Positions 768 through 33,749 of a stretch of DNA of 64,000 bases are shown here, one piece after another. The translations under genes were made by a program, and so were the position numbers. Origin of the DNA: Spirochaetia bacterium (GTDB taxonomy: Bacteria; Spirochaetota; Spirochaetia; SZUA-6; Bin103); the NCBI GenBank assembly GCA_965199955.1, contig CBDATQ010000001.1, positions 1,419,897 to 1,483,896 on the forward strand, read 5' to 3'. The notes beneath the pieces are model-generated. The model had not been told where the DNA came from and ran no database searches. It saw only the letters and a program-made list of their open reading frames with translations. Position 1 is the stretch's first letter. The number at the start of each line of letters is the position of its first letter.

Positions 768-2111
768 GTGCAGGTCTGCTCCACCCGTGACCGCGGCATG
801 CGCCTGTCGTTCAGCGCGTCGCTCCTGGCCGGGCTGCCTCCGAAAGGCGGGCTCTACCAGCCCGATCCGCCCCCGGACCTGAGGGGCGAGATCGCCGCCC
901 TACCGGAAGGGGCTTCGTTCCGGGAGGTGTCGGCGGCCGCCACCTCCCGGTTGCTGGAGGAGGAACTGGCGGCGTCGCCCGGCGGGTGGGTGGCGACGGC
1001 AGACTCCCTGGTCGAGGAGGCGTTTCCGTTCGCGCCCGCGCTGAGCCGGCTGCATGACGGCATCGTCCTGCTGGAGCTCTTCCACGGCCCCACCTGCGCC
1101 TTCAAGGACTTCGGCGCGTCGTTCCTGGCCACGCTGCTTGCGCGCCAGCTCCGCGCGAGCCCCGGCGGACAGCGTGTCGTGGTGCTGGTCGCGACCTCCG
1201 GCGACACCGGCGGCGCGGTGGCGCGCGCCTTCTGGCGGCGCAGCGGCATCGACGTGGTGCTGCTCTACCCATCTGGCCGCATCAGCCGCCTGCAGGAGCA
1301 GCAGCTCACCGCGCTGGGCGGCAACGTGCACGCGCTGGAGGTGGCAGGCTCGTTCGACGACTGCCAGCGCCTGGTGAAGGCGGCGCTGGCCGATCCGGAG
1401 CTGGCGGCGGCGGCGCGGCTGTGCCCGGCCAACTCCATCAGCCTGGGCCGCCTGCTGCCGCAAGCGTTCTACTACCTGTTTGCGGGCGTGCGCCTCGGCT
1501 CCCACGGGCGGCCCCTGTTCTGCGTGCCCAGCGGCAACTTCGGCAACCTGACCGCCGGCGTGTACGCCGCCTGGTGGGGGTTGCCTGTCGCCGGGTTCCT
1601 GGCGGCAACCAACCGCAACGACGTGGTTCCGCGGTACCTCGAAACCGGCGAGCTGGCCCAACATCCGAGCTTCGCCACGCTGTCCAATGCCATGGACGTG
1701 GGCGACCCCTCCAACTTCGAGCGCATCCTGGCGCGCTGGGAACACGACCATGCGGCCGTGCGCGCCCACCTGCTAGGCTGCGCGGTCAGCGACGCCGACA
1801 CCCTGGCCACCATGCGCGACGTGCACCGCCGCGACGGCCGGCTGGTGGATCCGCACACCGCCGTGGGCATCGCTGCGGCTCGGCGCCTGCGCGAATCCAG
1901 CGGCGTGGACGCCGGCAGGCCGCTGGTGGTGCTGGCCACCGCCGACGCCGGGAAGTTCCCGGAGACCGTGCGCCGGGCCACCGGCGTCGAGCCGCCGATC
2001 CCGCCATCACTGCAAGAGCTCCTGGCGCGTCCCAAGCAGGCGACGCCGCTGGAGCCACGCTCTGCGGCGCTGCGCGCGTTCATCCTCGAGCGTGCCGCCG
2101 CCGGCGGCTGA
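768..2111 (+). CDS. thrC: threonine synthase
   Basis: 447 aa; PLP-lysine motif HGPTCAFKDFG; N-terminus STRD/GGLYQP typical of ThrC. Confidence 0.9.
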   Translation: MQVCSTRDRGMRLSFSASLLAGLPPKGGLYQPDPPPDLRGEIAALPEGASFREVSAAATSRLLEEELAASPGGWVATADSLVEEAFPFAPALSRLHDGIVLLELFHGPTCAFKDFGASFLATLLARQLRASPGGQRVVVLVATSGDTGGAVARAFWRRSGIDVVLLYPSGRISRLQEQQLTALGGNVHALEVAGSFDDCQRLVKAALADPELAAAARLCPANSISLGRLLPQAFYYLFAGVRLGSHGRPLFCVPSGNFGNLTAGVYAAWWGLPVAGFLAATNRNDVVPRYLETGELAQHPSFATLSNAMDVGDPSNFERILARWEHDHAAVRAHLLGCAVSDADTLATMRDVHRRDGRLVDPHTAVGIAAARRLRESSGVDAGRPLVVLATADAGKFPETVRRATGVEPPIPPSLQELLARPKQATPLEPRSAALRAFILERAAAGG

Positions 2112-2114
2112 CCC

Positions 2115-3284
2115 GCTATGGCGAAAGGAACCGCCTCGAGGCTGCCGCGATGTCCGGGTACTCGCCTGCGGCCACGGCGCCACAGAGAGCCGCGCCGACC
2201 GCCGCGGCCTCCGCATTGGGCGACCGTGCGCGTCCGGTGCCCATCTGCCGCGCCGTCTGGCACGAAGTCGCGCAGCGCTCGCAGCGTCCGGCCCCCCCAC
2301 GCCCAGGCCGGCCAGCAGATGGCCCTGCTCGATGTAGGGCCGCAGCTCCAGCCAGCCGTGGTCGAACGGCTTACCGGGCGTTCGCAGCGGCTCCAGGTCA
2401 CCCACGAAGACGCTGCATTGTCCGGCGGTGCCGACGTTGACGGCCACGGAGGCGTCGCGGTCGGCGACCGCACCGGCGTACGAGCACTGCATGTCACCGG
2501 AGGCGACGGAGACCGGCACGGCTGGCCGCAGTCCCATCGCGTCTGCCATCTCCGGCCGGAGCCGCCCGCCCGGCCGGCAGGAGCGCACCACCTCCGGCAA
2601 CAGCGACGGGTCCAGTCCGAGCCGCCGGACCAGATCCTGGTTCCAGACTCCGCTGATCACGTCGAACACCCCCCAGCCGGCGGCGACCGCCCGCGGCCCC
2701 GTCAGCCGGGCGACCAGGAGCTCCGGTGCGGTACCCGCGCGCGCACCTGCCGGCAGCTCACCGGCCTGCTGGAGCCAGAACAGCAGCGGGACGGTGAACC
2801 CATGCGCCAGGGGGCAACCGGAATCGGCAAAGCGCGGACGCTGTCCGCTCGGGGTGATGGCGCCACCGCGCTCGGCCATCAGGTCGAGCCAGATCCCGCT
2901 GCCGGCCTGACCTGCCGCGGGCTCGGCGGTGCGGCGGTCCTGCCAGCCGATGTACGGACCGATCGCGGTTCCGTCTGCGGCCAGCACCTGGCAGCCCTTC
3001 TGCTGTCCGGTGACGCCGATCGCCTCGACGGCAGCCCCCGCGCATGCCTCCCCGGCACACAACAGGGCCAGGTCGAGCATGCGCTCGAAGTTCCATTCCG
3101 ACCGCCCGCGAGCCCGGTCGGCGGGCGAGGTCAACTCCGCGTCGTTGGCGCGGGAGCTGATGGCGGTCACAGCGCGAGCCGCGGTATCGATCACCACCGC
3201 CGTGATGCTGGTGGAGCCCAGGTCCAGTCCGAGGTAGCGGCTCACGGCGTCGTGCTCCTGGTCCGCGTCAGAACATCCAGTCAA
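2115..3284 (-). pseudogene. FGGY/ASKHA-family carbohydrate kinase, apparently disrupted (frameshift plus internal deletion)
   Basis: N-terminal LGLDLGSTS ATPase motif and FGGY_N-like domain are intact in the frame of ORF 2007..3284. After a C7 homopolymer (~2296-2302) the FGGY motif GGRTLRALRDFV continues in a second frame. The conserved C-terminal tail AEAAAVGAALCGAVAAGEY...* ends at 2115 in a third frame. About 120 aa of the C-domain are missing. Confidence 0.45.
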
Positions 3285-4497
3285 ACTGCGGCAGCGGCAG
3301 CAGCAGGGCGCGGTCCAGGTCGGCCAGCAGTTCCGCCGGTCCGGCCAGGTCGTCGGTAAGCGCCAGCGAGCTGGCCGGCCGCACGCCGGCCCAGAGGCGT
3401 GAGAAGGCGCCCGCGGACGCGCGCAGCTCCGCGAGGCCGGCGCGGTGGCCGGGCTCGACCTCGGATACTTCGGCCAGCGTGACCCGATACGCGCCGGCGA
3501 TCCCCCGCCAGCCGCCCTGCGCCGTCGTCCCGTCCAGGTAGCGCTCGATCGGATCGGTGAGCGTCAGGTTGAAGCGCACGGGCCGGTGGGTCCGGGTGGC
3601 GGCGATACAGCGCTGCAGGTCCAGGATGCGGATCTGCTGCCACGCCACGTACTGGAAGCGCTGCTCGTGCCTGGCGTTGCGCATGGCAGCGAGCCCGCGC
3701 AGCGGCTGGTGGAGCAGGTCCTGCACCTGCAGATGCACAGGCTCGGGCATCCGTACCTGGTGGACCTGGTCCGACAGGGAGGTGATCAGCGCCAGCAACT
3801 CCAGCAACTGGTGACCGTCCTCGTAGGCCAGCCACCAGATCGAGTACGGACCGTTCTCGTTCTCGGCTTCCGCGTAGAGGTGGTGGGTCAGCCGGTCGCC
3901 TGCGAAATAGCCGAGCCCGAAGCCGTTCTTCGCCCAGCGCAGGTCCATCTCCGTCGCCGCCGAGTCGTCGAAGACCACCGAACCGTGCGCGCGCATCCGC
4001 GCGCAGCGGTTGGCGTGCATCGGCGCGGTATGATCGACGGAGAGCCGCCGCGGAGGCCGTGCCTCGCATGGGACGCGGAGCTTGGCCGGATCGAACCTCA
4101 GGTCGAGGTTGTTGGGCATGCAGCCGAACCCGAGCCGGTTGTAGAACCCCTGTTCGAACATCCCAAGCCCGGCGACCGCCGCGCCGCTGCCGGCGGCCTC
4201 CGCCAGCGCCGCCGCCGTGACCCGGCCCGCCAGCCCCTGGCGGCGCGCCACCCGGCTGGTGGTCACCGCCATCACCCCGCACAGGTCGAGGTCCGCATCC
4301 CGGTAGCGCATCGAGCCGCGGCTGGTGAACACCGAGCACTCCGCGTCGCCGTCGATACGCGCGACCCAGCCGTCCATGCGGCGCATGCCGACGTCGAGCG
4401 CACGCTCGTGCGTGTCCTCCTCGACCCAGCCGGCCTCCCGCCACATGCGGACGACGGCCTTCGCGTCGCGCTCCCGGTCCAGCCGCTCCGGCGTCAC
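3268..4497 (-). CDS. Eis-like GNAT N-acetyltransferase with SCP2-like C-terminal domain (410 aa)
   Basis: Only the last ~410 codons of the 858-aa ORF are protein-like. A GTG start at 4497 overlaps the upstream TGA stop (GTGA). GNAT-like N-terminal region; overall length and architecture resemble Eis-family acetyltransferases. Confidence 0.6.
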   Translation of the reverse strand: MTPERLDRERDAKAVVRMWREAGWVEEDTHERALDVGMRRMDGWVARIDGDAECSVFTSRGSMRYRDADLDLCGVMAVTTSRVARRQGLAGRVTAAALAEAAGSGAAVAGLGMFEQGFYNRLGFGCMPNNLDLRFDPAKLRVPCEARPPRRLSVDHTAPMHANRCARMRAHGSVVFDDSAATEMDLRWAKNGFGLGYFAGDRLTHHLYAEAENENGPYSIWWLAYEDGHQLLELLALITSLSDQVHQVRMPEPVHLQVQDLLHQPLRGLAAMRNARHEQRFQYVAWQQIRILDLQRCIAATRTHRPVRFNLTLTDPIERYLDGTTAQGGWRGIAGAYRVTLAEVSEVEPGHRAGLAELRASAGAFSRLWAGVRPASSLALTDDLAGPAELLADLDRALLLPLPQFDWMF

Positions 4498-6161
4498 GGA
4501 CGCCTCAGCACGACGCGGCCATCGCCGCCGGTGCCGCCGAGCACGCGGATCACCCCGATCTCGGCGCCAGCCTCGGCGCCGCGGGCGCGCACGAACCACT
4601 CGACGATACGGCTGCCGGTGAGCGCGCGCAGGTGTCCCAGGTCGAGATGGCCTCGCGCCGACAGCAGCTCCACGCCGCCGGCCGACATCAGGCTGGCGCG
4701 CACCGGCTGCAGGCGCGGCAGCCCGAGCCCCTGGTTGGTGATGTTGGTCGGCAGCCGCCCGCGGTTGGCGATGCGCGCGCGGATGCGGTAGACGTCGCCG
4801 CCCACCGGGGCGACCTCGACTTCCTCCGCCTGTATCCGCGGATGCCGCTCGGCGAACGAGCGCGTGAAGCGGTAGGCGCCGTCCACCATCAGCGCAAGCG
4901 CCGGCACCAGCGGATTGTCGATCGCCGTGAACAGCAGGCCGCCCAGCTCGACCGGGCCGAGCTGCGGGTGGTCGAACCGCCGCCACGGCTCGAACAGCGG
5001 GTGGCGCCGTCCGTCCTCGTCCCACCATCGGAGGAGCTGCCGGTACATCGCGTCGATCCCGTCCCGGTCGCGGGAGCGTTCGTGCCACTCGTGGGCGGAC
5101 ACGCCCGCGGCGTTGACGATCGTGCCCAGCTCCACGTCGAAGCCGGGGATGCCGAGCTGGTGATAGGCGAAGCCGAGCGCGTGGCCGCGCCTGCCGCCGC
5201 TGCGGCCGCCGGGTCCGGTCGGATCGCTGAGGGCGACGGCCGGGCTGTCGATCGCCGCCGCTCCCTCCTGCGCCAGCTCCTCCAGGAGCGCGTCGTCGCC
5301 GGGATCCAGGTCCTCGCGCGGGCCCCACGCAGGCGGCCGGATCACCGACGCCGAGCCGCAGTGGTAGCCCAGGATCCCGCACAGCTTGGGCTGCTTGAAG
5401 ATGAACTCGGCGAGCGACCGCATCTCCGGCTCGCTGAACGGGTAGTCGCCGGCGCCCTGCTGCTCGCCCTCGTGCCGCCAGTCGTCCGACCAGTTGCGGT
5501 TGAAGTCGAAGCTGCGCCCGGCGTGCAGCTCCGGCGCGCCGGGGTAGAAGGAGTGCAGGCCGCCGATGCGGACGTCGTCGGTGCCGTCCCAGTCGTTGAT
5601 CATCCCCTCCGGGAAGACCCGGTAGAAGGGGCCGGGCGAGGTGGGCCGCCGGTCGACCAGCAGCCGCGGCTCCTCCGGGTCGCAGACGTAGGTGCCGTCC
5701 GGGTGCTCCTGGCGGATCGTCAGGATCAGCCCGTCGCCGTCGATGTCCGCGGAGTAGATGGTGTTGGGAGCGCGGTTGACCGAGTCGGTGCGGCTGCGGA
5801 CGCGGGCGGTGGTGGCCACGCAGAACTCGGAGGCGTCCGGGCACAGCCGCGGGACCAGGTAGAGGACCACGCGCGACAGCAGCCCGCCGCGCTCGTGGTC
5901 CTCCAGCAGGCGGTGCGCCGTGTACAGGGGACCGTGCGTGGAGGCCGGCTCGTGCGCGTGGATGCCGCCGTGGACGAGGAAGGCCGGCCGCTCGGACGGA
6001 TCGCCGGAGTCGAACTCCGTGACGGTGAGCAGGTGGAGGTCGCGGCCCTGGGCCGTGCGGCCTATGGAGCCTGCCCGGCAGAGCGCGGGGTGGGCGTCGG
6101 CCAGCTCCCGCACCACGGCGCTGATCTCATCGTACGTGTAGAAGTGGTCGAACTGGATCAT
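4494..6161 (-). CDS. M14-family zinc carboxypeptidase, no signal peptide (cytoplasmic)
   Basis: 555 aa; zinc-binding HxxE motif HGGIHAHEPAS near the N-terminus as in M14 peptidases; ATG start overlaps the stop of the upstream PhyH gene (ATGA at 6158-6161). Confidence 0.7.
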   Translation of the reverse strand: MIQFDHFYTYDEISAVVRELADAHPALCRAGSIGRTAQGRDLHLLTVTEFDSGDPSERPAFLVHGGIHAHEPASTHGPLYTAHRLLEDHERGGLLSRVVLYLVPRLCPDASEFCVATTARVRSRTDSVNRAPNTIYSADIDGDGLILTIRQEHPDGTYVCDPEEPRLLVDRRPTSPGPFYRVFPEGMINDWDGTDDVRIGGLHSFYPGAPELHAGRSFDFNRNWSDDWRHEGEQQGAGDYPFSEPEMRSLAEFIFKQPKLCGILGYHCGSASVIRPPAWGPREDLDPGDDALLEELAQEGAAAIDSPAVALSDPTGPGGRSGGRRGHALGFAYHQLGIPGFDVELGTIVNAAGVSAHEWHERSRDRDGIDAMYRQLLRWWDEDGRRHPLFEPWRRFDHPQLGPVELGGLLFTAIDNPLVPALALMVDGAYRFTRSFAERHPRIQAEEVEVAPVGGDVYRIRARIANRGRLPTNITNQGLGLPRLQPVRASLMSAGGVELLSARGHLDLGHLRALTGSRIVEWFVRARGAEAGAEIGVIRVLGGTGGDGRVVLRRP

Positions 6162-6985
6162 CGACGCGGGTTCTGCTCCAGCCAGTCGCGCAGCGGAACG
6201 TCCTGCGGCTTGGGCGAGGTGTAGCCGTGCCCGCCCGAGGGACTGGCGCCCAGAAGCTGCCGCCGGATCGGATCGCAGCGCTCCATCACGTGGGCGACGG
6301 TCATGTCGTCGCGCGGGCGCAGCCAGCGGTAGCTGTAGCCGTAGAAGAGCGCCTTGCGCGGGACGTCGGCATGGTTCGGGCTGCCGGTGTGCCAGACGCG
6401 GCGGTCGAACAGCACGATGCCGCCGCGCGGCACCAGCACCTCGGTCGCCCCCGGCGGATCGACGTCGCGCCGCTCGCGGTCGATCGCCGACTCGTCCAGG
6501 TGGCTGCCGGGCACGGCGGCGAAATTGCCGCGGCCGGGCTCGCTGCAGTCGGTGAGGAAGAGGCCCACCTTCAGCGAGACGCGCGGTTGTGGGGTCGTCT
6601 CCAGCTCGTGGTTGAGCCGATCGCTGTCCTGGTGCCAGTGCCGCTTGCCGGGGTCCGCACCCTGGCCGGCGCCGGGGGTGACGATCATGTGCGAGTGATA
6701 GATCTGGATGTTCCAGCCCAGCAGGTCGAGCACCTTGGGGAAGGTCGCCGGCCAGTCGATCATCGCAAGCAGCCGGTCGTCGCGCCCCAGGAAGTCGAAC
6801 ACGTTGAGCCGGTCAAGCTCGCTGGCGCTGAGCGCGACCCGCTCGGCGGCGATGACGGCGTCGAACGCCTCCTCCAGGCCGTCTGTCACCGCCTCCGGTA
6901 GCCGGTCCGGGAGTACGAGGAAGCCGTCGCCTACGAACTTCTCTTCCTCCGCGTCAGTCAGGCGGTGCCGGTTCCATGCGTCCAT
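6158..6985 (-). CDS. PhyH-family Fe(II)/2-oxoglutarate dioxygenase
   Basis: 275 aa; HxD facial-triad motif HWHQDSD and distal His in WHTGSPN; typical PhyH size. Confidence 0.75.
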   Translation of the reverse strand: MDAWNRHRLTDAEEEKFVGDGFLVLPDRLPEAVTDGLEEAFDAVIAAERVALSASELDRLNVFDFLGRDDRLLAMIDWPATFPKVLDLLGWNIQIYHSHMIVTPGAGQGADPGKRHWHQDSDRLNHELETTPQPRVSLKVGLFLTDCSEPGRGNFAAVPGSHLDESAIDRERRDVDPPGATEVLVPRGGIVLFDRRVWHTGSPNHADVPRKALFYGYSYRWLRPRDDMTVAHVMERCDPIRRQLLGASPSGGHGYTSPKPQDVPLRDWLEQNPRR

Positions 6986-7243
6986 GACCGGATCGTTCAG
7001 CGATCGGTCTCAAAGCCGTCCGACAGTTCCAAGGTCATACGGTGCATGTGGATAACGCCTCCCGGCGAGGCCAGCCGGACCCTGCCTTTTGCCCGCCAAA
7101 CTATCGGATGCATGGCGGATCGTCAACGTCGCTGTGCCGCCCGTCGAGGTGACGGTAGCCCGCCTGCACGTCGTCTACATAGACGCTCAGCTCACGCGCC
7201 CGGTCGCGCAACGATGGCAGCGGGACGGGGACGCCGGTGGCCT

Positions 7244-7789
7244 TCATCGGGAAACGTCGACTGCTATCTGCTGCAGGGCCGATACCGCCGACTTCATCCG
7301 CAGATCGATACTCTCGCGGCGTTCCTCCAATGATCGCATCGATCTCAGATGCGCCTCGTACTGATCGATGGCTTCTTGGTGTTCCCGCTGCAGGTCCACC
7401 GAGACGTCATCGCGTAACTTGAGTCGCAGCGCGCGAAGCTCAGCCTCGATCTTCCAGGAGTCCATCGTTCCGTCTCCGGCGCGGTCCAACTCGGCGCGTA
7501 GCGTAGCGAGTCGGTGCAGGTGATGGAGATAGTCATCGATCTCCGGTTCCAACTCACTGCGCAAGCCTGTGCCGAGCGCGCCCTGGTCCTGTAGTTCGTC
7601 GAGGATCCGGTCGCACAGCTCGATCACGGAGTCGGGCGCCGCGGCGTCCGTGTCCATCGAGGCAGGCCGCGCGGCGCCGAACTCGACGCCGGCTTCTCGC
7701 AGAAGGCGGCGCATCTTCCGCTGTCGCGTCGAGGTGAGGGCGTAGTGCGAGGCCAGCGCGACGCCCGCAGCGCCGATCGCGGGAAGCAA
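7244..7789 (-). CDS. hypothetical coiled-coil protein with N-terminal hydrophobic segment
   Basis: 181 aa, charged heptad-like C-terminal two thirds, hydrophobic N-terminus LPAIGAAGVALASHYAL; GC3 lower than neighbouring genes. Confidence 0.4.
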   Translation of the reverse strand: MLPAIGAAGVALASHYALTSTRQRKMRRLLREAGVEFGAARPASMDTDAAAPDSVIELCDRILDELQDQGALGTGLRSELEPEIDDYLHHLHRLATLRAELDRAGDGTMDSWKIEAELRALRLKLRDDVSVDLQREHQEAIDQYEAHLRSMRSLEERRESIDLRMKSAVSALQQIAVDVSR

Positions 7790-8151
7790 CCATGGACCGG
7801 TGGCGGCGAATTCCTGAGCGTGCGGCGATCAGTGAACGCACCGCGCGCAGCGCCGCCTCATCGAGGGGCGGCAACGCTGGAACGCACGGGTAAGCCGAAC
7901 GCGCGGCGCAGACGAGCGCTCTGACTCTGAGCGGATGCGGGTTCCTTGTGTCCTCATCGGAACGCCGCGGTCCCTTCGGTCGGACGGCCGCCGGGTCAGG
8001 CTGACGTTACCGCCCCGGTCCGTACTACCACCCAGCCACAGCGCGGCCATTGCTACGCCTGTCCTCTCATCGCGTCACACGGAGACACGCCCGTCCGATA
8101 GTCCGGCACGTGCCTCTCCGATCGCCGCCGTTCTCCTGTATGATCTGCGCC

Positions 8152-9936
8152 ATGTCGACTGCCACCCGTTCGCTTCTGACGATCGACACGCCGATGGCGC
8201 CACCCGCATGGGCGGTGATGCAGCGCGAGCTGCTGCGCGCCCAGACCGCGGCCATCGATGCGTTCCATGCGAAGTACTTCGACGAGCGCGGCTACCTGCG
8301 CTGCGTGCCCCGCTGGGGCGGGGACGACGGTGCCGACGACGCCGCGGAGAACTTCACGAGCTGGACCCTGCTGTACGCGCTCGGCGCCGACCAGTCGGTG
8401 CTGGACCGCTACCTCAACGCCTGGGAGGGCCACCTGCGGCAGTACACGGAGGCCAAGACGGTCGAGGTCGAGTTCGCCCGCGACGGCATGTACTTCAAGG
8501 AGTTCCCGGTCATGTTCGACTGGGGCCACAACGGCGAGGGGTTCAACGCCTTCTACCTGCAGGGCCTGTGCACGCCGGACGACCTGACGTTCCAGAGCCG
8601 GACGCGCCGCTACGCCGGCTTCTACATGGACGAGGATCCGATCGCCAAGAACTACGACCCCCGCCACCGGGTGATCCGCAGCATGTTCAACGGCAGCCGC
8701 GGCCCGCTGATGCGCAAGGCGACGGCGCTGGACTGGACCGGCGACCGGATCGAGATCGAGGGGCGCTTCAAGCCCGGCCACCGGGAGACCAGCTACGAGC
8801 AGATGCTCGCCCATTTCGCCGAGTACAACGACGTGGTCGGCGACCATCCGCTCAACCTGCAGACCACCACCCTGGCGATCAACGCCTACATGATCGCCGG
8901 TGAAGCGAAGTACCGGGACTGGATCATCGAGTACGTCGGCGCCTGGAAGGAGCGCACGGAGGCAAACGGCGGCATCATCCCCACGAACGTCGGCCTGGAC
9001 GGCACCCCGGGCGGGGCCGCCGACGGCCGCTGGTGGGGCAGCACCTACGGGTGGGGCTTCTCGATCGACGACTACCTCAACCCCGGCTCGGGCGGCCGCT
9101 TCCACCGCCACCTGTTCATCGAGCGGGCGCCGCGCGGGTTCGGCAACGCGCTGATGGTGACCGGCGACCAGGGCTACGTCGACACGTGGCGCGGCGTGAT
9201 CGACGGCGTGAACGCCAACGCCAAGGTGATCGACGGCCAGACCATGTACCCGCAGAACTACGGCGAGGAGGAAGGCGAGCCGGGCTGGTACAACTACGCG
9301 CCCGAGCCGTACACGAACGGCGCCATGCCGGTCTGGTTCTGGTCGATGCGGGACGCCGACAAGAAGCTGATCGCCGGCGACGACTGGGTGCGCTACCTGG
9401 GCAGCGACAACCCCGGCTTTCCGGTGGAGTCGCTGCAGCGCGAGTTCGCGGAGTTGCGCACGCGCGTCGAGCGCATGCACCGGGACACCAGCTCGCCGGA
9501 CACGCGCATGTCCGACGATCCGATGGGCGCCAATCCGGCGGTCGTGACCGCGTTGACGCAGCAGATGCTGGGCGGCCTGGAGACCTCGCACTACGGGTTC
9601 CCGGTGTACAGCCGGCTGCGCTACTTCGATCCCGAGCGCCGGCGGGCGGGCATCCCCCCGAACGTGGCGGCGCTGGTCGACTCGATGTCGGACACCGAGG
9701 TGGCGGTGACACTGGTCAACCTGGACCAGGCGGAGGCGCGCACCGTGGTCGTGCAGGCCGGCGCCTACGGCGAGCACCGCTTCGGCCAGGCGTCTGCCGG
9801 CTCGGCATGGGCGACCGTCGACCGCCCGCACGTGCGGGTGCGCCTGGAGCCCGGCTGCGGCGAACGGATCGTGTTCGAGCAGGCCCGCTACGCGGAACAG
9901 CCCACCTTCATGTTTCCGTGGGACCGGGCGGAGTAG
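8152..9936 (+). CDS. hypothetical protein (595 aa), family not recognised
   Basis: long protein-like ORF with high GC3; the start is moved to the ATG at 8152 because the upstream 34 codons are R/P-rich; no signal peptide; W/Y/G-rich composition may indicate a glycan-active fold. Confidence 0.55.
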   Translation: MSTATRSLLTIDTPMAPPAWAVMQRELLRAQTAAIDAFHAKYFDERGYLRCVPRWGGDDGADDAAENFTSWTLLYALGADQSVLDRYLNAWEGHLRQYTEAKTVEVEFARDGMYFKEFPVMFDWGHNGEGFNAFYLQGLCTPDDLTFQSRTRRYAGFYMDEDPIAKNYDPRHRVIRSMFNGSRGPLMRKATALDWTGDRIEIEGRFKPGHRETSYEQMLAHFAEYNDVVGDHPLNLQTTTLAINAYMIAGEAKYRDWIIEYVGAWKERTEANGGIIPTNVGLDGTPGGAADGRWWGSTYGWGFSIDDYLNPGSGGRFHRHLFIERAPRGFGNALMVTGDQGYVDTWRGVIDGVNANAKVIDGQTMYPQNYGEEEGEPGWYNYAPEPYTNGAMPVWFWSMRDADKKLIAGDDWVRYLGSDNPGFPVESLQREFAELRTRVERMHRDTSSPDTRMSDDPMGANPAVVTALTQQMLGGLETSHYGFPVYSRLRYFDPERRRAGIPPNVAALVDSMSDTEVAVTLVNLDQAEARTVVVQAGAYGEHRFGQASAGSAWATVDRPHVRVRLEPGCGERIVFEQARYAEQPTFMFPWDRAE

Positions 9937-9995
9937 CGTCCCAAGGGTGTGCGGCGCCTCGGGCGGCGCCCGCGTTCAGTCGGTCGGGCCGCGGA

Positions 9996-10283
9996 TTAGC
10001 GGAGTTCGAGTTCCAGACGCATCCCCACGGCAGCCGCCGCGCGCTTGAGTGTATGCAGGGTAACTCCCTCGTTCTCCGGGTCGAGCAGTCGGTCGAGTTG
10101 CGAGCGGCTGGTTTCCATTCGTTCGGCCATGCGCGCTTTGGAAAGCTTCTGATCCTTCATCGCTTGCTCCAGCTTGTAAGCGAGGACCGACTTGACGGCG
10201 TCGTTCTTGGCATCTTCGTAGGTGCCGTCTTCCCGCAGCAAGCTTTCAAGTGTCGATCCCAAGTGCGGGTTCTCATCAGGCAT
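9996..10283 (-). CDS. HigA-like HTH (XRE-family) antitoxin
   Basis: 95 aa; helix-turn-helix segment LSKARMAERMETSRSQLDRLLDPEN; overlaps the upstream toxin gene by 8 nt. Confidence 0.7.
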   Translation of the reverse strand: MPDENPHLGSTLESLLREDGTYEDAKNDAVKSVLAYKLEQAMKDQKLSKARMAERMETSRSQLDRLLDPENEGVTLHTLKRAAAAVGMRLELELR

Positions 10284-10701
10284 ATCGATGGTACTCCTTC
10301 ATCCGACGCTCGGCGAGTTTCAGTTCCTTCAGCGGTGTCGCCTGGCTCTTCTTCATGAAGCCGTGCAACAGCACCATATTCTGGTCCGATACGACGAAGA
10401 ACACGCGGGCGATCCGCCGGCCTTCAAGACGGCTGCGCACTTCGTAGAGACCCGGATAGGCGGACAGCGAGCGGCAGAGCGGAGCACCGCACGGCCAACC
10501 GAATTCGACTTTCGTCAGATCCCCGCCGATGCGCCTTCTATCCTCCAACGACTGGTCCATGAGCCACTCACGAACCGGCTCTCGACCACCACCGGGTGAC
10601 CGAAAGAACCGAGCCACGATCGCTTTCCCTTGTGGCTTCACTTCGGGAAGGTACCATATTTGGTACTGTGCTTCCACTCCACGTCGATGAACGAGTCCCA
10701 C
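10276..10701 (-). CDS. HigB/RelE-superfamily toxin (Gp49-like, DUF891-type); true start may be internal
   Basis: C-terminal ~110 aa match the Gp49/HigB pattern (REWL...KVEFG...YRVFFVV...LLHGFMKK); toxin-first order as in higBA. Confidence 0.65.
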   Translation of the reverse strand: MGLVHRRGVEAQYQIWYLPEVKPQGKAIVARFFRSPGGGREPVREWLMDQSLEDRRRIGGDLTKVEFGWPCGAPLCRSLSAYPGLYEVRSRLEGRRIARVFFVVSDQNMVLLHGFMKKSQATPLKELKLAERRMKEYHRYA

Positions 10702-12674: not shown

Positions 12675-14468
12675 ATGAGAGGAATGCGAGCAGACGAGCT
12701 GACCATCCCCGTGACCGCGCCCGCCCCGCTTCGCGAGAAACGGGCGTCGGTCCGGGACTACGGCGCCGATCCGGCCGCCGACGACAACTACGGCGCCTTC
12801 CAGCAGGCGCTCGACGACAGCCGCGACCGCGGCATCTCCACGCTGAGCGTTCCGCCGGGAATCTACCGCTTCGCGACGGCGCGCCCCCTCTGCCTGCGCG
12901 GTCTGGAGGACTTCACGCTCGACGGGAGCGGCGCCGAGCTGATCTTCAGCAGGGACGAGGACTTCATCCACCTCTCCGACTGCCGGCGCGTCGTGCTGCG
13001 CGACCTGGTGGTCGACTGGGACTGGGGCACGGCGCCGCTGGCCAGCATCGCGCAGGTGCGCGCAGCCGCCCCGGCCCGCGACTGGGTCGAGCTCGAGTTC
13101 ACCGAGCACGACCATGTCGACGCCGGCATGACCTTCGCCACCATGAACGCGCTCGACCCGCAGCGGCTCACGCCGGGGTGCGAGGGCGGCCGGGAGTACG
13201 GGCGCGGATTCTCCAGTGTGCGCAAGGCGGGCGCCAACGTGCTGCGCTGCCACCTCGATCCGGCCGGGCTGTCCGAGCTGTTGTTCAACCCGGGTTCGGT
13301 GTACCTAGTCCGGCACTTCCTGCACGACTCACCGGCGTTCACGATCAGCGATTGCCAGCACCTGTCGCTGCATCGGATCACCGTCCACTCGGCGGCCGGC
13401 GCCGGCTTCATCGTCCGCGGGGACACCGGCAACTGGGAGGCGGTGGCCTGCAGGATCGCCCTGCGGCCGGGCGCAACCCGTCGCATCACCACCACCTCGG
13501 ACGGCCTGCACCTGGCCCAGAGCCGCGGGTTCTTCAGGCTCGAAGGCTGCGACTTCAGCTTCCACGGCGACGACTGTCTGAACATCCACGACAACATCTC
13601 CATGGGCGTGCGCGACGTGCGGCGCCACACCCTGATCGCGCGCCACGTCCGCGAGGACGAACGGCCGCTGCACGTGGGCGATCCGGTCGAGTTCCGGCGT
13701 CCGGACCTGTCGCCTGCCGGGTTCACGAGCCACGTCACGGACCTCCGCTACCTGCCGGACGACGAGTGCGAGCTGGTTTTCGCCGACGTGCTGCCGGCTG
13801 ACCTCGACGCGCAGACCATCCTGTTCAACCGCCGCTATGACAGCTCCCACTACCTGGTCCGCGGCAACCACTTCCACGAGAACCGCGCGCGCGGCGTCCT
13901 CCTGCAGGCGTGCCACGGACTGGTGGAAAGCAACCGGTTCTACCGCAACCAGGGCGCCGCGGTGCAGATCGAGACCGGGGCCAGCTTCGGGACGTGGTCG
14001 GAAGGGATGGGGGTCGAGGATCTGATCGTCCGCGACAACACCTTCCACACCTGCGACGTCAACGACTGGGGCAAGGCCGTGGTGTACATCAGCGCGTTCC
14101 TGCCCGCGGGGGTGCCGGTCACGCCGCAGGGATCGCCCAACCCCACCAGCACGATCGGCGACTCGGGGTCCTTCTATCGCACCGCCTACCCGATCTTCCG
14201 GGACCTGCTCTTCGAGAACAACCGCTTCGTGGACTACCCGCGCAGGGCCATGATCGTCAGCTCGGCGCGGGACGTGACGGTGCGCGACAACACGTTCAGC
14301 AATCCCACCTCGCGCGCGCAGAACAACCCCGAACGGGGCTCCATCTGGGTGGAGCTGTCCAGCCGGGTGACCGTGCAGGGCAACGACTGGCAGCCGTCGC
14401 CGTATCAGGCGGAGCGCACGGTGGAGCGGGACTCCGCAACCGCGAGCGACGTCACGATGATCGATTGA
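12675..14468 (+). CDS. right-handed parallel beta-helix protein (pectin-lyase fold; GH28/GH91-like)
   Basis: 597 aa; repeated N/D/G/H-rich beta-helix turn motifs (NxxFHxN, GNHFHENRARG); no signal peptide. Confidence 0.65.
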   Translation: MRGMRADELTIPVTAPAPLREKRASVRDYGADPAADDNYGAFQQALDDSRDRGISTLSVPPGIYRFATARPLCLRGLEDFTLDGSGAELIFSRDEDFIHLSDCRRVVLRDLVVDWDWGTAPLASIAQVRAAAPARDWVELEFTEHDHVDAGMTFATMNALDPQRLTPGCEGGREYGRGFSSVRKAGANVLRCHLDPAGLSELLFNPGSVYLVRHFLHDSPAFTISDCQHLSLHRITVHSAAGAGFIVRGDTGNWEAVACRIALRPGATRRITTTSDGLHLAQSRGFFRLEGCDFSFHGDDCLNIHDNISMGVRDVRRHTLIARHVREDERPLHVGDPVEFRRPDLSPAGFTSHVTDLRYLPDDECELVFADVLPADLDAQTILFNRRYDSSHYLVRGNHFHENRARGVLLQACHGLVESNRFYRNQGAAVQIETGASFGTWSEGMGVEDLIVRDNTFHTCDVNDWGKAVVYISAFLPAGVPVTPQGSPNPTSTIGDSGSFYRTAYPIFRDLLFENNRFVDYPRRAMIVSSARDVTVRDNTFSNPTSRAQNNPERGSIWVELSSRVTVQGNDWQPSPYQAERTVERDSATASDVTMID

Positions 14469-16703
14469 ACGCTACCGTGCGTTCCGCCGGGAAGCGCAGG
14501 GTGTAGCTGCCGCCCGCCCTGGTCTGCAGCTCCTGCACGGTGCTGCCGTAGCGAACGCGGCACCGGCCGCCGCGGTCCGCGCGAACCAACGCTTCGGCGA
14601 GTGCGCCGCCGCGCCAGCGGGCATCCACGGAAAAGGCGCCGCGCGCGCGAAAGCCGCGGAAGGAGCCGTCGGCCCACGCGGACGGCAACGCGGGCAGCAG
14701 GTGGATGACGCCGGCGTGGCTCTGCAGGAGCATCTCCGTGATCGCGGCGGCGACGCCCATCATGTCGCCGACCTGCACCTGGCCGTGGGCGTCCACGAAC
14801 AGGTTCGGATAGAGCTTGCGGGCGAACGACCGCTCAATCAGCTCCAGAGCGCGATCGCCCAGGCGGAGCCGGGCCAGGATCGCGGCGATCCAGCCCAGGC
14901 TCCAGCCCTGCGCGTCGTAATCGTGGCGCAGCCGGTGCTCGACCGAGCGCTGCGCCGCCCGAGCCAGCTCGGGATCGCGGTCGGGCTGCACCCGGTAGCC
15001 GGGCATCAACCCGTACAGGTGGGAGACGTGGCGGTGGCCGGGCTCCGCCTCCGCCGGTTCGTGGCGCCACTCGCGGAGCCGGCCGTCGCTGCCGATCGCC
15101 GGCAGCGCCAGCCGGTCGCGCGCCGCGCGGACTTGGCGCAGCAGGCCGTCGTCGATCTCCAGGATTTCGGCTGCCTCGATGAAGCCGTCGAACGTGTGCC
15201 AGATGATCTCCTGGTCGCACGCGCACCCCATCGACAGGCTGCAGGCGCGGCCGTTCGCGTCCAGGAATCGATTCTCCGGCGACGCGCCGGGCCCGGAAAC
15301 CAGCGTGCCGTCGTCCGGGTCCACCGCCAGCCAGTCGAGCAGGAACAGCGTGCAATCCCGGAGCACGGGATAGGCGCGTTCCGACAGGAACGCCCGGTCC
15401 CGCGTATAGCGGTAGTGGTCGATCATGTGCTGGGCACACCACGCGGCGCCCATCAGCCACATCCCCCAGAGCGGTTCCCCGTACACCGCCGCGTACCCCC
15501 ACGCGTCGGTGTCGACGCCGGCGAAGAACCCCCGGCATCCCAGCTCCCGCGCCGCCCGTCCGCCGGCCACTCGCAGGCGTTCGGTGAGGTGGAACAGCGG
15601 CTCGTGGCACTCCGGCAGAGCCAGCGGCTCGGCGAGCCAGTAGGCCTCCTGGAGATTGACGTTGATGTGGTAGTCCGAGTGCCACGGCGCGCGCAGCAGC
15701 GGGTTCCACACCCCCTGCAGGTTGGCCGGCAGCGTGCCGGGCCGGGACGCGGCGATGAACAGGTAGCGGCAGTAGTGGAAGTAGAGCAGCAGCAGCCCGG
15801 GGTCTGCCACGCCGGCTGCCGCGGCGCTCACGCGCGCGTCCGTGGCCCGGTCCCCGCCCGCGTCGACCGCAAGCTGCAGGTCCACCCGGCCGAACAGGCG
15901 TCCGTGGTCCGATTCGTGATGCTCGCGCAGCTCCTCATACGGCCGGCCGGCTGCGTCGTCGAGCCGCTGCCGGCACGCGGCCGTCAGGTCGCCGGGCAGC
16001 GGGCGCGAAGGGTCATCGAACCGATAGTCCGTGGCGATGGCCACCAGGACGGTCACGGAACGTGCGCCCCGGACCCGCAGCGACTCGGGCGCATCGACCG
16101 GGCCGTCATCACCAGCTCCGCGCCGGACCGGAGGTCGGTGACGCCGCCCGCGCCGCCCGGGTGCTGCAGTGCGAACGAAGCGCCGACGCGCGGCTCATCG
16201 GCATCGAGGCGCAGAACCACGATGTCGTCGGCGGCCGAAACGAACGCCTCGCGGCGATGGCGGACGCCTGCGCACCGGTACTCCACCGTGGCGACCGCGG
16301 TGCGCAGGTCGAGCCGCCGGCGGTAGTCGTGCACGGCTGCCTGCCCGTGTCCGAGCTCCATCGACAGGTAGCCGGCCGGCTGGTAGCTGCGCGGCGAGAT
16401 GCGCGGGGCAAGGAGATGGCGCTGGCAGTAGCGTTCCGCATCGAAGTGGCGGCCGGCGGACAGCAGGCGCCGGATCTCCGCGACGTGACGCCGCGCGTGC
16501 GGCTGCATGACCGGCACCGGCGGCCCGGCCCAGATCGTCTTTTCGTTGAGCAGCACCTGATCACGCCCGATGCCGCCATAGATCATGGCGCCCAGGCGGC
16601 CGTTGCCGAGCGGCAGGGCGGCGCTCCAGCCGCGCGCGGGCCGATCCCGGTCGGAGACCGGCCGGTCCAGGGCCGCCGGAGCGTTGTACCAGAGGTCGTG
16701 CAC
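14452..16703 (-). pseudogene. GH95-family alpha-L-fucosidase, split into two ORFs by a frameshift near 16055 (or a sequencing error)
   Basis: ORF 16053..16703 carries the GH95 N-terminal domain signature LWYNAPA...WSAALPLGNGRLGAMIYGG...LLNEKTIWAG. ORF 14452..16056 carries the catalytic (alpha/alpha)6 region with NLQGVWN and HVSHLYGLMPG. The two ORFs overlap at CCGTGACC in different frames. Confidence 0.5.
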
Positions 16704-16732
16704 GGAGTCGGAGGCTCGCGGTGGTGCGCGGA

Positions 16733-17653
16733 TTACGCCTTGATGTGGCCGACCAGCAGTCCCTTCACGAAGTAGCGCTGCAGGAACGGGTAGGCGACGG
16801 TGATCGGAAACACGGTGACCACGATCGTGGCGTACTTCATCGATTCCATGGTCACCAGCATCTCGGAGGTGATCATCTCCGCGCCGGGTTGGATGCTCTG
16901 CGACTGGGCGGAGGCCACCCGGTAGAACGCCTCCAGGCTCGACATGGTCTTGATCAGGATCGTCGGCACCGTCCACCACTTCTGGTTGAACACGAAGTAC
17001 GCGGATGCGAACCAGTCGTTCCAGTGCAACACGCCCACGAACAGGGCGATCGTCGCCAGCACAGGCCTGGACAGCGGCAGCATGATGCTCACGAAGATGC
17101 GGAAGTCGCCGGCGCCGTCGACCTTCGCCGAGTCCTCCAGCGACTGGGGCAGCTCCCGGAAGAACGCCATGAACAGGAGCGCGTGATAGTAGGCGAACAG
17201 CTCGGGAACGATGTAGACCCAGAACGTGTTGAGAAGGCCTATCGCGCGGTACAGCAAGTAGGTCGGGATCAGTCCGCCCGAGAAAAAGAGCGTGACCAGG
17301 CCGATCATCGAGTAGGTCTTGCGAAAGACGAGGTGCCTCTTGGAGAGCCCGTAGGCGACCATGGACGTGAAGAACACGGCGGTCACCGTGCCCACCGCCG
17401 TGCGCAGGATCGTCACCAGGAACGCGGTGCCGATGAGGGGATCGCCCAGCACGACGCGGTAGTTGGTCAGCGTAGGGCGGCGCGGGAACAGGAACAGCCC
17501 GCCCTTGGCCGAGTCGATCCCCTCGTTGAGGGAGCGCAGGATGACGTAGTAGAAGGGGTAGAGGGTGACGATGAGCACGATCAGCGCCAACGCGACCACG
17601 ACCATGTTGATGACGCGGTCCTCCCTCGACTGGGCCATGCGCGCGAGCGCCAT
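16733..17653 (-). CDS. ABC sugar transporter permease (LplC-like)
   Basis: multi-TM protein with the binding-protein-dependent permease EAA-like loop; ATG at 17653 overlaps the upstream stop (ATGA). Confidence 0.85.
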   Translation of the reverse strand: MALARMAQSREDRVINMVVVALALIVLIVTLYPFYYVILRSLNEGIDSAKGGLFLFPRRPTLTNYRVVLGDPLIGTAFLVTILRTAVGTVTAVFFTSMVAYGLSKRHLVFRKTYSMIGLVTLFFSGGLIPTYLLYRAIGLLNTFWVYIVPELFAYYHALLFMAFFRELPQSLEDSAKVDGAGDFRIFVSIMLPLSRPVLATIALFVGVLHWNDWFASAYFVFNQKWWTVPTILIKTMSSLEAFYRVASAQSQSIQPGAEMITSEMLVTMESMKYATIVVTVFPITVAYPFLQRYFVKGLLVGHIKA

Positions 17654-20191: not shown

Positions 20192-20243
20192 TTCGTCGAT
20201 GAGGACAACATCCCGCTACTCCGGCGCGGCAGGAGCCTGACGC

Positions 20244-22211: not shown

Positions 22212-22214
22212 CGC

Positions 22215-26377: not shown

Positions 26378-26416
26378 CTGTCGCCGGCCGGACGGTGCAA
26401 TGGCCGCCCGGTGCGG

Positions 26417-26637
26417 TCAAGCACGGTGGTCCGTCGCACACTGAACCGCATCGGGGTTTGCCGCGACGCCGATGGTCGCCCCAGCGTCGTCGATGCCGAG
26501 CACCAGGAGGCCGCCGGCGCCATTTGCGAAAGCACACAGCGTCCTGCCGACGCCCGCATGTCGTCGACGCCGCGCTTGAACTCGGTAGCGGCATCCTCTC
26601 CCGCGTGGACACGCCGCTCGACCTCGGCCCACTCCAT
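26417..26637 (-). pseudogene. remnant of an AlbA_2 (Schlafen-like) domain gene, frameshifted and truncated
   Basis: two overlapping minus-strand frames together read ...EDAATEFKRGVDDMRASAGR / TLCAFANGAGGLLVLGIDDAGATIGVAAN, matching the AlbA_2 N-terminal consensus (E.EFK ... AFAN.GG.L.GV.D.G); no downstream ATPase part. Confidence 0.35.
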
Positions 26638-26758
26638 CGTCGTCCGTGTCGGAGCATACCAGCAGCCCGGCCGGGTGATCGTCGTTGCGGGGTCAGGCAA
26701 CCCTTGCCGGATGCGACATTCGCGTATACACAGAGGCCGCGCAGGAGGTCGCTACATC

Positions 26759-30587: not shown

Positions 30588-30657
30588 CCTAACCCGGCCG
30601 GCCGTGCTACCGTGCGCGCTATCGCCCGTCATGGGCGGAACCAGGCGAGGGGAGATC

Positions 30658-32315: not shown

Positions 32316-32375
32316 AGTCGACGCATCGGGGACTGAACGAACCGGTGGACCGAAAACGGTCCTCCTCTGCCACCG

Positions 32376-33551: not shown

Positions 33552-33749
33552 CGGTTCTCCTCGATCCAGCTTGAGCACCGACTCGGAGGTCGTGTCAATG
33601 GGTGCGTATCGCTTCGCCGCGTCGGTCCGTACCCGCAGCGCCGCGAACGGGGACTCGATCACGTCGTTCGTCCGCAGGTGCCGCCGGTCCGTTCGTCCAG
33701 TTCGTGCAGCCGCCGTACCTTCTGGCTGGCGGGAGCCGTGGAGGGAACG

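Follow-up and report, generated by a model that had tools for sequence, protein, structure and literature searches.

The locus lies within a 64,000-nucleotide stretch of spirochaetal DNA, hereafter the window, and consists of three minus-strand genes in tandem, recognised from ORF calls and from reading of the sequence (Table 1). They encode a PhyH-family oxygenase, an M14 metallocarboxypeptidase and an Eis-fold acetyltransferase of the GNAT superfamily, starting with ATG, ATG and GTG, respectively. Consecutive genes share ATGA and GTGA start/stop overlaps. The first-pass annotation had described this arrangement; its coordinates match on the sequence and the same overlaps are retained in related genomes. 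It had also read the overlaps as implying co-translation and co-function. Analysis of confident gene calls within the window revealed 4-nt start/stop overlaps at 5 of 20 same-strand junctions, so such overlaps are commonplace here and support operon organisation, nothing more specific. A GAGG Shine-Dalgarno-like motif lies upstream of the M14/GNAT overlap and ends about 7 nt before it. The GTG start of the GNAT gene is supported by the family consensus, which opens at the same residue, and by the invariance of D11 and R17. Catalytic residues are kept in all three proteins, and the clade comparison indicated purifying selection on the three genes alike (dN/dS 0.13-0.48; 0.13-0.23 for PhyH). No sigma-70 promoters or intrinsic terminators were found in a scan of positions 1900-8200, a result that is uninformative for such an organism.

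Table 1. Features of the operon and its immediate surroundings (positions within the window).
Feature	Position	Strand	Remarks
FGGY sugar-kinase gene, disrupted here	2007..3245	-	Starts 22 nt past the GNAT stop; only FGGY_N detected
Eis-fold acetyltransferase (GNAT), 409 aa	3268..4497	-	N-terminal GNAT, central GNAT-like domain, C-terminal SCP2 domain
M14/GNAT GTGA start/stop overlap	4494-4497	-	M14 stop TGA 4496-4494, GNAT start GTG 4497-4495
M14 metallocarboxypeptidase, predicted cytoplasmic, 555 aa	4494..6161	-	M14A/B-like catalytic domain
PhyH/M14 ATGA start/stop overlap	6158-6161	-	PhyH stop TGA 6160-6158, M14 start ATG 6161-6159; sequence reading
PhyH-family Fe(II)/2-oxoglutarate oxygenase, 275 aa	6158..6985	-	Pfam PF05721; first gene of the operon, accessory module member
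181-aa ORF	7244..7789	-	Weak DUF445 match below cut-off; between PhyH and p628
p628, 594-aa protein without known family	8152..9936	+	Divergently transcribed from the operon

The product of the first gene, earlier described as an Fe/2OG hydroxylase, is indeed a PhyH-family protein (55.2 bits, cut-off 22; E=1.5e-14). H118, D120, H199 and R210 are invariant among 30 homologues and supply the H-x-D...H iron triad and the 2OG-binding arginine; in the profile alignment R210 falls with the P-R of EctD. The PhyH domain, the triad and this arginine are common to EctD, phytanoyl-CoA hydroxylase and other PhyH-family oxygenases. Unlike EctD and phytanoyl-CoA hydroxylase, the operon subfamily has at its C-terminus about 60 additional conserved residues of its own. 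The family profile matches EctD (1.8e-9), human PhyH and GriE; the likeness to EctD is confined to profile level (E ~1e-9), and no EctD or other equivalog was matched among NCBIfam models at E<=0.01. Orthologues elsewhere neighbour Gfo/Idh/MocA, DegT aminotransferase and enolase-superfamily genes. An ectoine-type gene set following the logic of EctD, DoeB and EctA was rejected, as no EctD equivalog is present, the M14 protein does not resemble DoeB and the acetyltransferase is of Eis type.

The second gene encodes a predicted carboxypeptidase that matches Peptidase_M14 (PF00246) with 106.7 bits (cut-off 21.6). The HAHE motif near the N-terminus, from which a zinc carboxypeptidase had been proposed, is H68-A-H-E71. 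In the alignment with CPA4, H68 and E71 occupy the HxxE motif and H267 the position of His196 (CPA numbering); all three predicted zinc ligands are invariant in 31 homologues. The stretch D219-F-N221-R222-N223-W224 aligns to DPNRNW of CPA4, with the carboxylate-binding Asn144/Arg145 positions present and invariant. E344 is likewise invariant; its F-x-V-E-L-G context, which lies outside the CPA alignment, resembles the F-E-L context of Glu270 in CPA. The sequence shows no clear equivalent of Tyr248, and the model has low confidence at residues 316-320. Because the M14 domain begins at residue 1-10 across the family, there is no room for a signal peptide, and the enzyme is predicted to be cytoplasmic, as had been claimed.

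Structure comparison placed the catalytic-domain fold nearer to M14A/B than to the MpaA, CCP or AstE/AspA branches. Profile and fold together assign the protein to the A/B type; an AstE/AspA identity (including DoeB), raised at first pass as an alternative, was rejected because the best profile and fold match is not AstE_AspA. In comparison with carboxypeptidases T, B and A (MEROPS M14A) and domain II of carboxypeptidase D (M14B), to which it is 17-21% identical, the protein is predicted to be cytoplasmic, lacks a pro-peptide or signal peptide, and has two additions: about 85 residues after the R-x-R motif, inserted in the catalytic domain at residues ~130-218, and a C-terminal region of about 170 residues forming a beta-rich domain (~385-555). 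It is a member of the classical A/B-type metallocarboxypeptidase family with putative carboxypeptidase activity and forms a subfamily of its own. Proteins of this subfamily (~545-570 aa) occur in Poribacteria, PVC phyla, Armatimonadota, Latescibacterota, Anaerolineae and Gemmatimonadota. Their genes lie near sulfatase, Gfo/Idh/MocA, enolase-superfamily, heparinase-like and amidohydrolase genes in other phyla, and no partner conserved across phyla was found. A literature search on this subfamily returned nothing relevant.

Analysis of the third protein confirmed the Eis fold that the first-pass annotation had proposed for a two-domain N-acetyltransferase and added a C-terminal SCP2 domain. Acetyltransf_9 reaches 28.5 bits, above its cut-off of 25, and SCP2_2, although detected in 22 of 33 family members, narrowly misses its own in this protein (21.9 bits against 23.2). 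The family profile aligns full-length (residues 30-401) to 2HV2 with E=1.6e-9, and also to Mtb Eis and Mab Eis2. The best 50 PDB matches found by Foldseek with the AF2 model (pLDDT 90.9) are all Eis-family chains, with TM 0.70-0.77 over ~410-430 columns. The acetyl-CoA motif R/Q-x-x-G-x-G/A is present as R85-R-Q-G88-L-A90 (R85-x-x-G88-x-A90) and is invariant, as is Y119, which by approximate alignment offsets corresponds to the general-acid Tyr126 of MtEis. The protein ends in ...DWMF (family consensus ...DWDF), with Phe as C-terminal residue. In characterised Eis, the N-terminal GNAT domain acetylates aminoglycosides and the carboxylate of the C-terminal Phe is the remote base (PMC8556138). 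The protein thus shares with Eis (M. tuberculosis Eis, M. abscessus Eis2, 2HV2, 2I00, 3N7Z, 2OZG, 4MY0) the three-domain fold, the acetyl-CoA motif, the conserved Tyr and the C-terminal Phe, whereas it is only 12-18% identical to the Eis family and is translationally coupled to a carboxypeptidase, a coupling for which the literature search found no report. Scores against the NCBIfam Eis equivalogs are far below the cut-offs (NF002368, 14.8 bits against 576; NF002369, 30.1 bits against 463), so the protein shares the Eis fold without being an Eis orthologue. Elsewhere the family is found near exporter genes (MatE, DrrA-like ABC, EamA) or housekeeping genes, not sugar genes; exporters adjoin a minority of the loci only.

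The operon is surrounded mostly by glycan-utilisation genes, and thrC and toxin-antitoxin genes also lie nearby. The FGGY gene downstream has apparently lost a net ~335 nt from its interior; the shifted tail enters the 3' end of thrC. It is intact (494 aa) in seven relatives, the one scanned (L001) having both FGGY_N and FGGY_C, and it is absent from four clade loci. Upstream, the 181-aa ORF lies in a stretch of about 1 kb with a GC content of ~65%, against ~72% in the flanks; it occurs in two relatives only (L002 and L011) and is probably not part of the module. The divergent gene p628 has no PADLOC match and none in Pfam, NCBIfam or PDB, even with a profile of 24 sequences; 5NO8 (E=0.5) and, for a single member, C5-epim_C (E=0.05) are marginal traces and the only ones. 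p628 matches ~1,974 representative clusters at E<=1e-3. The protein is possibly an (alpha/alpha)6 glycan-active enzyme of lyase or epimerase type. Proteins without Pfam domains in the operon of locus L094 were considered as p628 relatives and found not to be homologous. p628 adjoins M14 in 9 of the 12 clade loci described below and also in L009 and L012 (M14 identity 75% and 58%); it is the older neighbour of M14 in spirochaetes, accessory to the module, and can be lost. The window further contains genes for a sugar-type SBP and permeases, GH95, three GH32, three GH101-like proteins, an SGSH-type sulfatase and a second PhyH.

Gene-neighbourhood analysis revealed that the trio recurs in one narrow group and is absent outside it. 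It is confined to a shallow clade of high-GC "Spirochaetia" MAGs (12 loci in 11 genomes) with dS of 0.18-0.46, and at so slight a divergence common descent alone could account for much of the synteny. M14 and GNAT adjoin each other in all 12 loci, with the (G/A)TGA overlap in 11; in the remaining locus, L006, a 68-nt spacer takes its place. PhyH lies directly upstream of M14, with the same ATGA junction, in 9 of the 12; in 4 it is missing, displaced or pseudogenised. In L003, L006 and L007 the flanks differ and the homologous block is reduced to exactly M14 and GNAT (3265-6201 of the window), which indicates that the pair has been kept through rearrangements; it is retained in three different genomic contexts, and in L006 and L007 a sugar ABC transporter and a GH123-like gene adjoin it. 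Genome OZ253561.1 carries the block, including p628, twice, and in the second, otherwise decaying copy (L005) the PhyH and p628 genes are frameshifted and the M14 and GNAT frames are open. The M14-GNAT pair is therefore the stable core, to which PhyH and p628 are accessory and losable.

Outside the clade, HMM search found neither GNAT nor orthologous PhyH at any of 68 M14 loci. Neither M14 nor PhyH lies at any of 85 GNAT loci, neither M14 nor GNAT at any of five PhyH-orthologue loci, and no M14, PhyH or p628 at any of 80 metagenome GNAT loci. The trio was thus not found together in phylogenetically distant genomes. Remote PhyH paralogues (E 1e-4 to 1e-10) do occur at 10 of the 68 M14 loci. A recurring PhyH and M14 partnership (L009, L091, L094 and some Poribacteria) was rejected, as these proteins are remote paralogues with no BLASTP similarity and HMM E-values of 1e-10 or weaker. 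PhyH genes are massively expanded in sponge-symbiont genomes (PMC3909097), and PhyH near M14 was for this reason treated as chance or weak evidence. PhyH, M14 and GNAT each come from a large uncharacterised subfamily, are solitary in other phyla and are joined only in this clade. Overall, the genes very probably form a real operon with an M14-GNAT core that is specific to the clade and is not a general pathway. The protein families and the operon of the first-pass annotation are borne out; a widely conserved pathway is not, and its antibiotic-immunity analogy gains little support. The literature search for this gene combination returned nothing relevant.

Our best explanation of the whole, a lineage-restricted operon in which a coupled M14-GNAT unit processes an imported compound in the cytoplasm, is put forward as a reasonable but tentative reading. 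Most likely, we infer, a glycoconjugate or peptide is imported and then processed in the cytoplasm. The substrate, which would come from a host or the environment, would be a glycoconjugate, peptide or amino compound, and in the cytoplasm M14 would take off a C-terminal residue or an amide-linked acid with a free alpha-carboxylate. The Eis-type GNAT would next N-acetylate the free amine of the product or of the remaining amino-sugar or peptide moiety, and the acetylated product would enter N-acetyl-sugar or amino-acid catabolism or be rendered harmless. PhyH, where present, may hydroxylate the substrate or the product. The order of reactions is guesswork, and the specific catabolic order given here is doubtful. 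The genomic context is catabolic, comprising FGGY, the SBP and permeases, GH genes and the sulfatase as well as the M14 neighbours in other phyla; it is weak evidence, since these genomes are rich in glycan-utilisation genes. Against a catabolic reading, the GNAT family elsewhere keeps other company than sugar genes and the FGGY gene is disrupted here.

An alternative is that the three enzymes belong to no common pathway, being neighbours by descent that are co-transcribed for convenience, each with its own substrate. The separation of the families outside the clade, the low dS within it and the frequency of 4-nt overlaps in the window all fit this account, and adjacency of PhyH is cheap given the expansion of PhyH genes in sponge symbionts (PMC3909097) and the second PhyH in the window. 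It does not readily explain a two-gene M14-GNAT block that persists in three contexts with its overlap in 11 of 12 loci, or a decaying copy in which these two frames alone among the four stay open, and we consider it somewhat unlikely. A third account, murein-peptide recycling, would make M14 an MpaA-like gamma-D-Glu-meso-DAP amidase and the GNAT a modifier of the freed diamino acid. A homologue with 60% identity (P0011) bears the JGI label 'murein tripeptide amidase MpaA', and M14 is, like MpaA, predicted to be cytoplasmic; since its fold is nearer to M14A/B than to the MpaA branch, this account is highly improbable.

Detoxification or self-protection would assign to the operon the Eis-type acetylation and M14 hydrolysis of a toxic amine compound, with oxidative inactivation by PhyH, the targets being aminoglycoside-like, peptide or peptide-nucleotide antibiotics from neighbours in a dense microbial community. 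Aminoglycoside acetylation by characterised Eis (PMC8556138) is consistent with this, as are the C-terminal Phe, Y119 and acetyl-CoA motif kept in the GNAT and the MatE efflux pump and DrrA-like ABC and EamA exporters beside some of its orthologues. However, exporters are minority neighbours, M14 keeps catabolic company in other phyla, neither biosynthetic nor toxin genes occur within ~10 kb of the operon, and PADLOC gave no match for any of the five proteins scanned, on which ground anti-phage defence was also rejected. A single-sequence search gave PhyH a weak match to kanamycin B dioxygenase and EvdO2, but the family profile favours EctD, PhyH and GriE and leaves KanJ at E ~0.02; a KanJ-like dioxygenase paired with an Eis-like aminoglycoside acetyltransferase was accordingly set aside. 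The earlier comparison with acetyltransferase and peptidase immunity pairs holds in outline only, in that the microcin C pair MccE (C-terminal GNAT) and MccF also sets an acetyltransferase beside a carboxypeptidase-type hydrolase, either of which could inactivate an aminoacyl or peptidyl toxin. MccF is an S66 serine peptidase, and the C-terminal domain of MccE is a RimL-type single-domain GNAT. Here, in contrast, an M14 metallopeptidase accompanies an Eis-type GNAT with no mcc-like biosynthetic genes nearby, and a microcin-C-type immunity pair was rejected, with S66 peptidase, RimL-type GNAT and linkage to an MccB-type cluster all lacking. Taken together, detoxification appears unlikely.

The locus is a clade-specific operon of known enzyme superfamilies; nothing in it is mechanistically surprising and it opens no long-standing question. 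If M14 and GNAT share one substrate, the pair would provide a handle on three very large, widespread and unannotated enzyme subfamilies: the 550-aa, predicted cytoplasmic M14 enzymes known from Poribacteria, PVC phyla and Armatimonadota, the 410-aa Eis-fold acetyltransferase and the 594-aa protein without a recognised domain. It would also shed light on the handling of complex material of host or algal origin by uncultured, apparently host-associated bacteria. A bolder and rather improbable version is that M14 and GNAT constitute an undescribed two-step 'cleave, then N-acetylate' route by which, with PhyH and p628, these high-GC spirochaetes would consume or disarm an amine-bearing glycopeptide or peptide. 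If so, three large orphan subfamilies would gain their first functional assignments.

The three minus-strand genes at the start of the window, encoding PhyH (an Fe(II)/2-oxoglutarate oxygenase), M14 (a zinc carboxypeptidase) and GNAT (an Eis-fold acetyltransferase), form an operon of three intact enzymes in a region of 70-75% G+C. The two 4-nt stop/start overlaps described in the first-pass annotation were seen in the raw sequence, as ATGA at 6161-6158 for the PhyH/M14 junction and GTGA at 4497-4494 for the M14/GNAT junction. After filtering of the gene calls by third-position GC, such overlaps were counted at 5 of the 20 junctions between same-strand neighbours in the window; since they are common in this genome, those of the trio are nothing remarkable and indicate operon organisation with possible translational coupling. 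The GNAT frame is open far 5' of the GTG start, an extension that is an artefact of the high GC content. The GNAT start is preceded, at a distance of about 7 nt, by a GAGG motif; the family consensus opens at the identical residue, with D11 and R17 both invariant. M1 of PhyH is invariant among homologues. The predicted starts of the trio genes agree with their homologues. Comparison with relatives revealed purifying selection on all three genes, with dN/dS values of 0.13-0.23 for PhyH, 0.14-0.28 for M14 and 0.20-0.48 for GNAT.

Features of the window; the trio genes were located from the ORF listing and the raw sequence
Feature	Position	Strand	Remarks
FGGY sugar-kinase gene	2007-3245	-	22 nt 3' of GNAT
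GNAT	3268-4497	-	409 aa, GTG start
M14	4494-6161	-	555 aa, ATG start
PhyH	6158-6985	-	275 aa, ATG start
Lower-GC stretch	6986-8049		about 1 kb, ~65% GC
181-aa ORF	7244-7789	-	inside lower-GC stretch
594-aa protein gene	8152-9936	+	divergent
Toxin-antitoxin-like pair	9996-10701	-	Gp49/DUF891 (HigB/RelE-type), 141 aa; overlapping Cro/C1-type HTH, 95 aa
GH95, two ORFs	14452-16979	-	N-terminal domain 16053-16979; catalytic and C-terminal domains 14452-16056; 4-nt overlap
GH32 (three)	18608-20191, 24173-26377, 28861-30201		
GH101-like (three)	20244-22211, 22215-24182, 25823-28861		
Second PhyH-family gene	30487-31479		
N-sulfoglucosamine-sulfohydrolase-type (SGSH-type) sulfatase	35594-37057		
SBP and permeases; beta-helix protein	elsewhere in window		
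Hydantoinase B; peptide/oligosaccharide SBP	elsewhere in window		

The identification of the first gene as an Fe/2OG hydroxylase is borne out by a match to Pfam PF05721 (E=1.5e-14) and by H118, D120, H199 and R210, invariant in an alignment of 30 homologues, which make up the iron triad and the 2OG-binding arginine. The family profile matches EctD (1.8e-9), human PhyH and GriE, a leucine hydroxylase; no NCBIfam equivalog was matched.

The M14 gene matches Pfam PF00246 (E=2e-30). The HxxE motif noticed in the first pass (H68, E71), together with N221-R222 and H267, aligns to carboxypeptidase A4 and is invariant in 31 homologues, as are R122, R124 and E344. Foldseek matches to the AF2 model (pLDDT 83) are carboxypeptidases T, A and B. 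Because of this motif alignment and these matches, M14 is predicted to contain a classical-type metallocarboxypeptidase domain. By the same motifs and fold it is neither an MpaA nor an AstE/AspA deacylase, the desuccinylase type that the first-pass annotation had named as one example of what would refute its reading; M14 lacks the defining features of both. The protein carries an insertion at residues ~130-218 and a beta-rich C-terminal region. The 31-homologue alignment leaves no room for an N-terminal secretion extension in any family member, in keeping with the lack of a signal peptide noted in the first pass.

For GNAT the earlier designation as Eis-like stands as to fold. Acetyltransf_9 was found over the Pfam threshold and SCP2_2 slightly under it; of 33 family members, all 33 match Acetyltransf_9 and 22 match SCP2_2. 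The family profile aligned end to end with the Eis-family structure 2HV2 and matched Mtb Eis and Mab Eis2, and the AF2 model (pLDDT 90.9) retrieved Eis-family structures only (TM 0.70-0.77). Conserved features are the acetyl-CoA motif R85-x-x-G88-x-A90, Y119 and a Phe as the last residue; they match the mechanism of MtEis, in which Tyr126 and the Phe402 carboxylate take part (PMC8556138). The score is far under the NCBIfam Eis equivalog threshold, and GNAT is therefore a relative with the Eis fold, not Eis itself.

A survey of one genome per GTDB species gave 80 M14 loci with 10-kb flanks. The window belongs to a lineage of "Spirochaetia bacterium" MAGs, since these hold the closest M14 loci (84-96% M14 identity). 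By tblastn and family HMMs, GNAT adjoins M14 in all 12 loci (11 genomes) of the trio-bearing clade and in none of the 68 others, and orthologous PhyH occurs in clade loci only; 10 non-clade loci have, within 10 kb of M14, PhyH paralogues that are only remotely related (E 1e-4 to 1e-10). Reciprocally, M14 and PhyH were absent from GNAT orthologue loci in genomes, M14 and GNAT from PhyH orthologue loci, and M14, PhyH and the 594-aa protein from 80 metagenome GNAT loci (595 kb). The trio arrangement is thus restricted to one clade, and conservation of the neighbourhood elsewhere was not found. The clade is shallow (dS 0.18-0.46), so conserved gene order inside it is expected by descent.

Variation among the clade loci shows that M14-GNAT is the robust unit and PhyH is optional. 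The (G/A)TGA overlap of M14 and GNAT is present in 11 of 12 loci, L006 having a 68-nt spacer instead; PhyH lies immediately 5' of M14 with the ATGA overlap in nine, the exceptions being L003, L006 and L007. In L003 an ~8-kb block with PglZ-domain and DUF6079 proteins (BREX-like) separates PhyH from M14 (L003 2149-8102), these defence genes being placed, as an insertion, exactly at the boundary. L006 and L007 have no PhyH within 10 kb; a giant NERD-kinase protein is the upstream neighbour, and the downstream genes encode parts of a sugar ABC transporter as well as a GH123-like protein. DNA comparison revealed that the block shared by L003, L006 and L007 is exactly M14 plus GNAT (window 3265-6201). 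The two genes have stayed coupled despite rearrangement around them.

Genome OZ253561.1 holds two copies of the block, the syntenic L062 and a second, L005, whose homology to the window covers 3267-9957, with the GNAT stop at one edge and the end of the 594-aa gene at the other. In L005 (7329-12820) PhyH is at the junction and frameshifted, the 594-aa gene is frameshifted too, and M14 has an in-frame deletion of 24 codons; L005 is a decaying second copy. A DDE transposase gene lies ~2.5 kb past its GNAT, and its M14 is closer to the window than that of L062 (dS 0.19 vs 0.28).

The 594-aa protein gave no match in Pfam, NCBIfam, PADLOC or PDB, profile search included, and belongs to a family of ~1,974 representative clusters. 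Its gene is the divergent neighbour of M14 in every spirochaete locus that carries it, including the GNAT-less L009 (75% M14 identity) and L012 (58%); in L009 it is the first gene of an operon that also encodes two PhyH paralogues and a sulfatase of the SGSH type. Marginal fold hints were to the PL27-like structure 5NO8 (E=0.5) and a glucuronyl C5-epimerase C-terminus (E=0.05). The lower-GC stretch separating it from PhyH looks like an insertion; other relatives have ~100 nt there, and the 181-aa ORF was found in L002 and L011 only among related genomes. The toxin-antitoxin-like pair sits in a GC dip between the 594-aa gene and a sugar-binding protein gene.

Seven relatives have an intact FGGY gene (494 aa), with FGGY_N and FGGY_C in L001, the one scanned. 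The window copy has a net internal deletion of ~335 nt that leaves the N-terminal domain alone, its shifted frame entering the 3' end of thrC; pseudogenisation and misassembly are the two explanations. The remainder of the window consists mostly of carbohydrate-active and uptake genes, with a dense glycan-utilisation island at 18608-37057; the GH95 interruption reflects a split gene or else a frameshift. In other phyla M14 has no fixed partner, and sulfatase, Gfo/Idh/MocA, enolase-superfamily, amidohydrolase and heparinase-like genes lie near it. From gene company we infer a sponge origin of the window. PhyH genes are hugely expanded in sponge-associated Poribacteria, their function mostly unassigned (PMC3909097), and PhyH adjacency therefore carries less weight.

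The M14-GNAT pair would have a cytoplasmic role, its substrate being an imported compound with a free C-terminal carboxylate, as M14 requires, and a free amine, as the Eis-type acceptor; the gene context points to material from a host or from algae, in the form of a glycopeptide, an amino-sugar conjugate or a peptide. The carboxypeptidase would trim this compound, GNAT would then cap the exposed amine, leading to N-acetyl-sugar/amino-acid catabolism or neutralisation, and PhyH would hydroxylate the compound. This specific scheme is put forward very tentatively, and that the genes share no pathway is likewise a doubtful though possible reading, to be set against the persistence of M14-GNAT. Detoxification is in keeping with the known activity of Eis enzymes and with the MatE, DrrA-like and EamA genes neighbouring GNAT orthologues, and is nonetheless unlikely. 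In its defining features the trio matches neither MccE/MccF immunity, the peptide-nucleotide comparison once drawn for it, nor the ectoine ect/doe genes. Recycling of murein peptides is highly improbable. In L081 5777-8221 (a 7.8-Mb genome), two tandem GNAT orthologue copies lie 3' of a MatE efflux gene and 5' of 2-hydroxyacid dehydrogenase and 3-keto-disaccharide hydrolase genes.

A literature search found no report of the PhyH-M14-GNAT combination, which does not recur beyond one shallow clade. With 12-21% identity to any solved structure, each enzyme is a divergent member of a well-known superfamily; the trio represents further members of known superfamilies in a lineage-specific operon. 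All three subfamilies are large and well conserved and bear generic public names only: 456 matches for M14 (~545-570 aa; Poribacteria, Planctomycetota, Lentisphaerota, Kiritimatiellia, Armatimonadota, Latescibacterota, Anaerolineae and Gemmatimonadota), >1,100 for GNAT (~406-413 aa) and >2,400 for PhyH (~280 aa). A genuine 'cleave, then acetylate' pathway is rather improbable; if true, it would give large orphan families a function.
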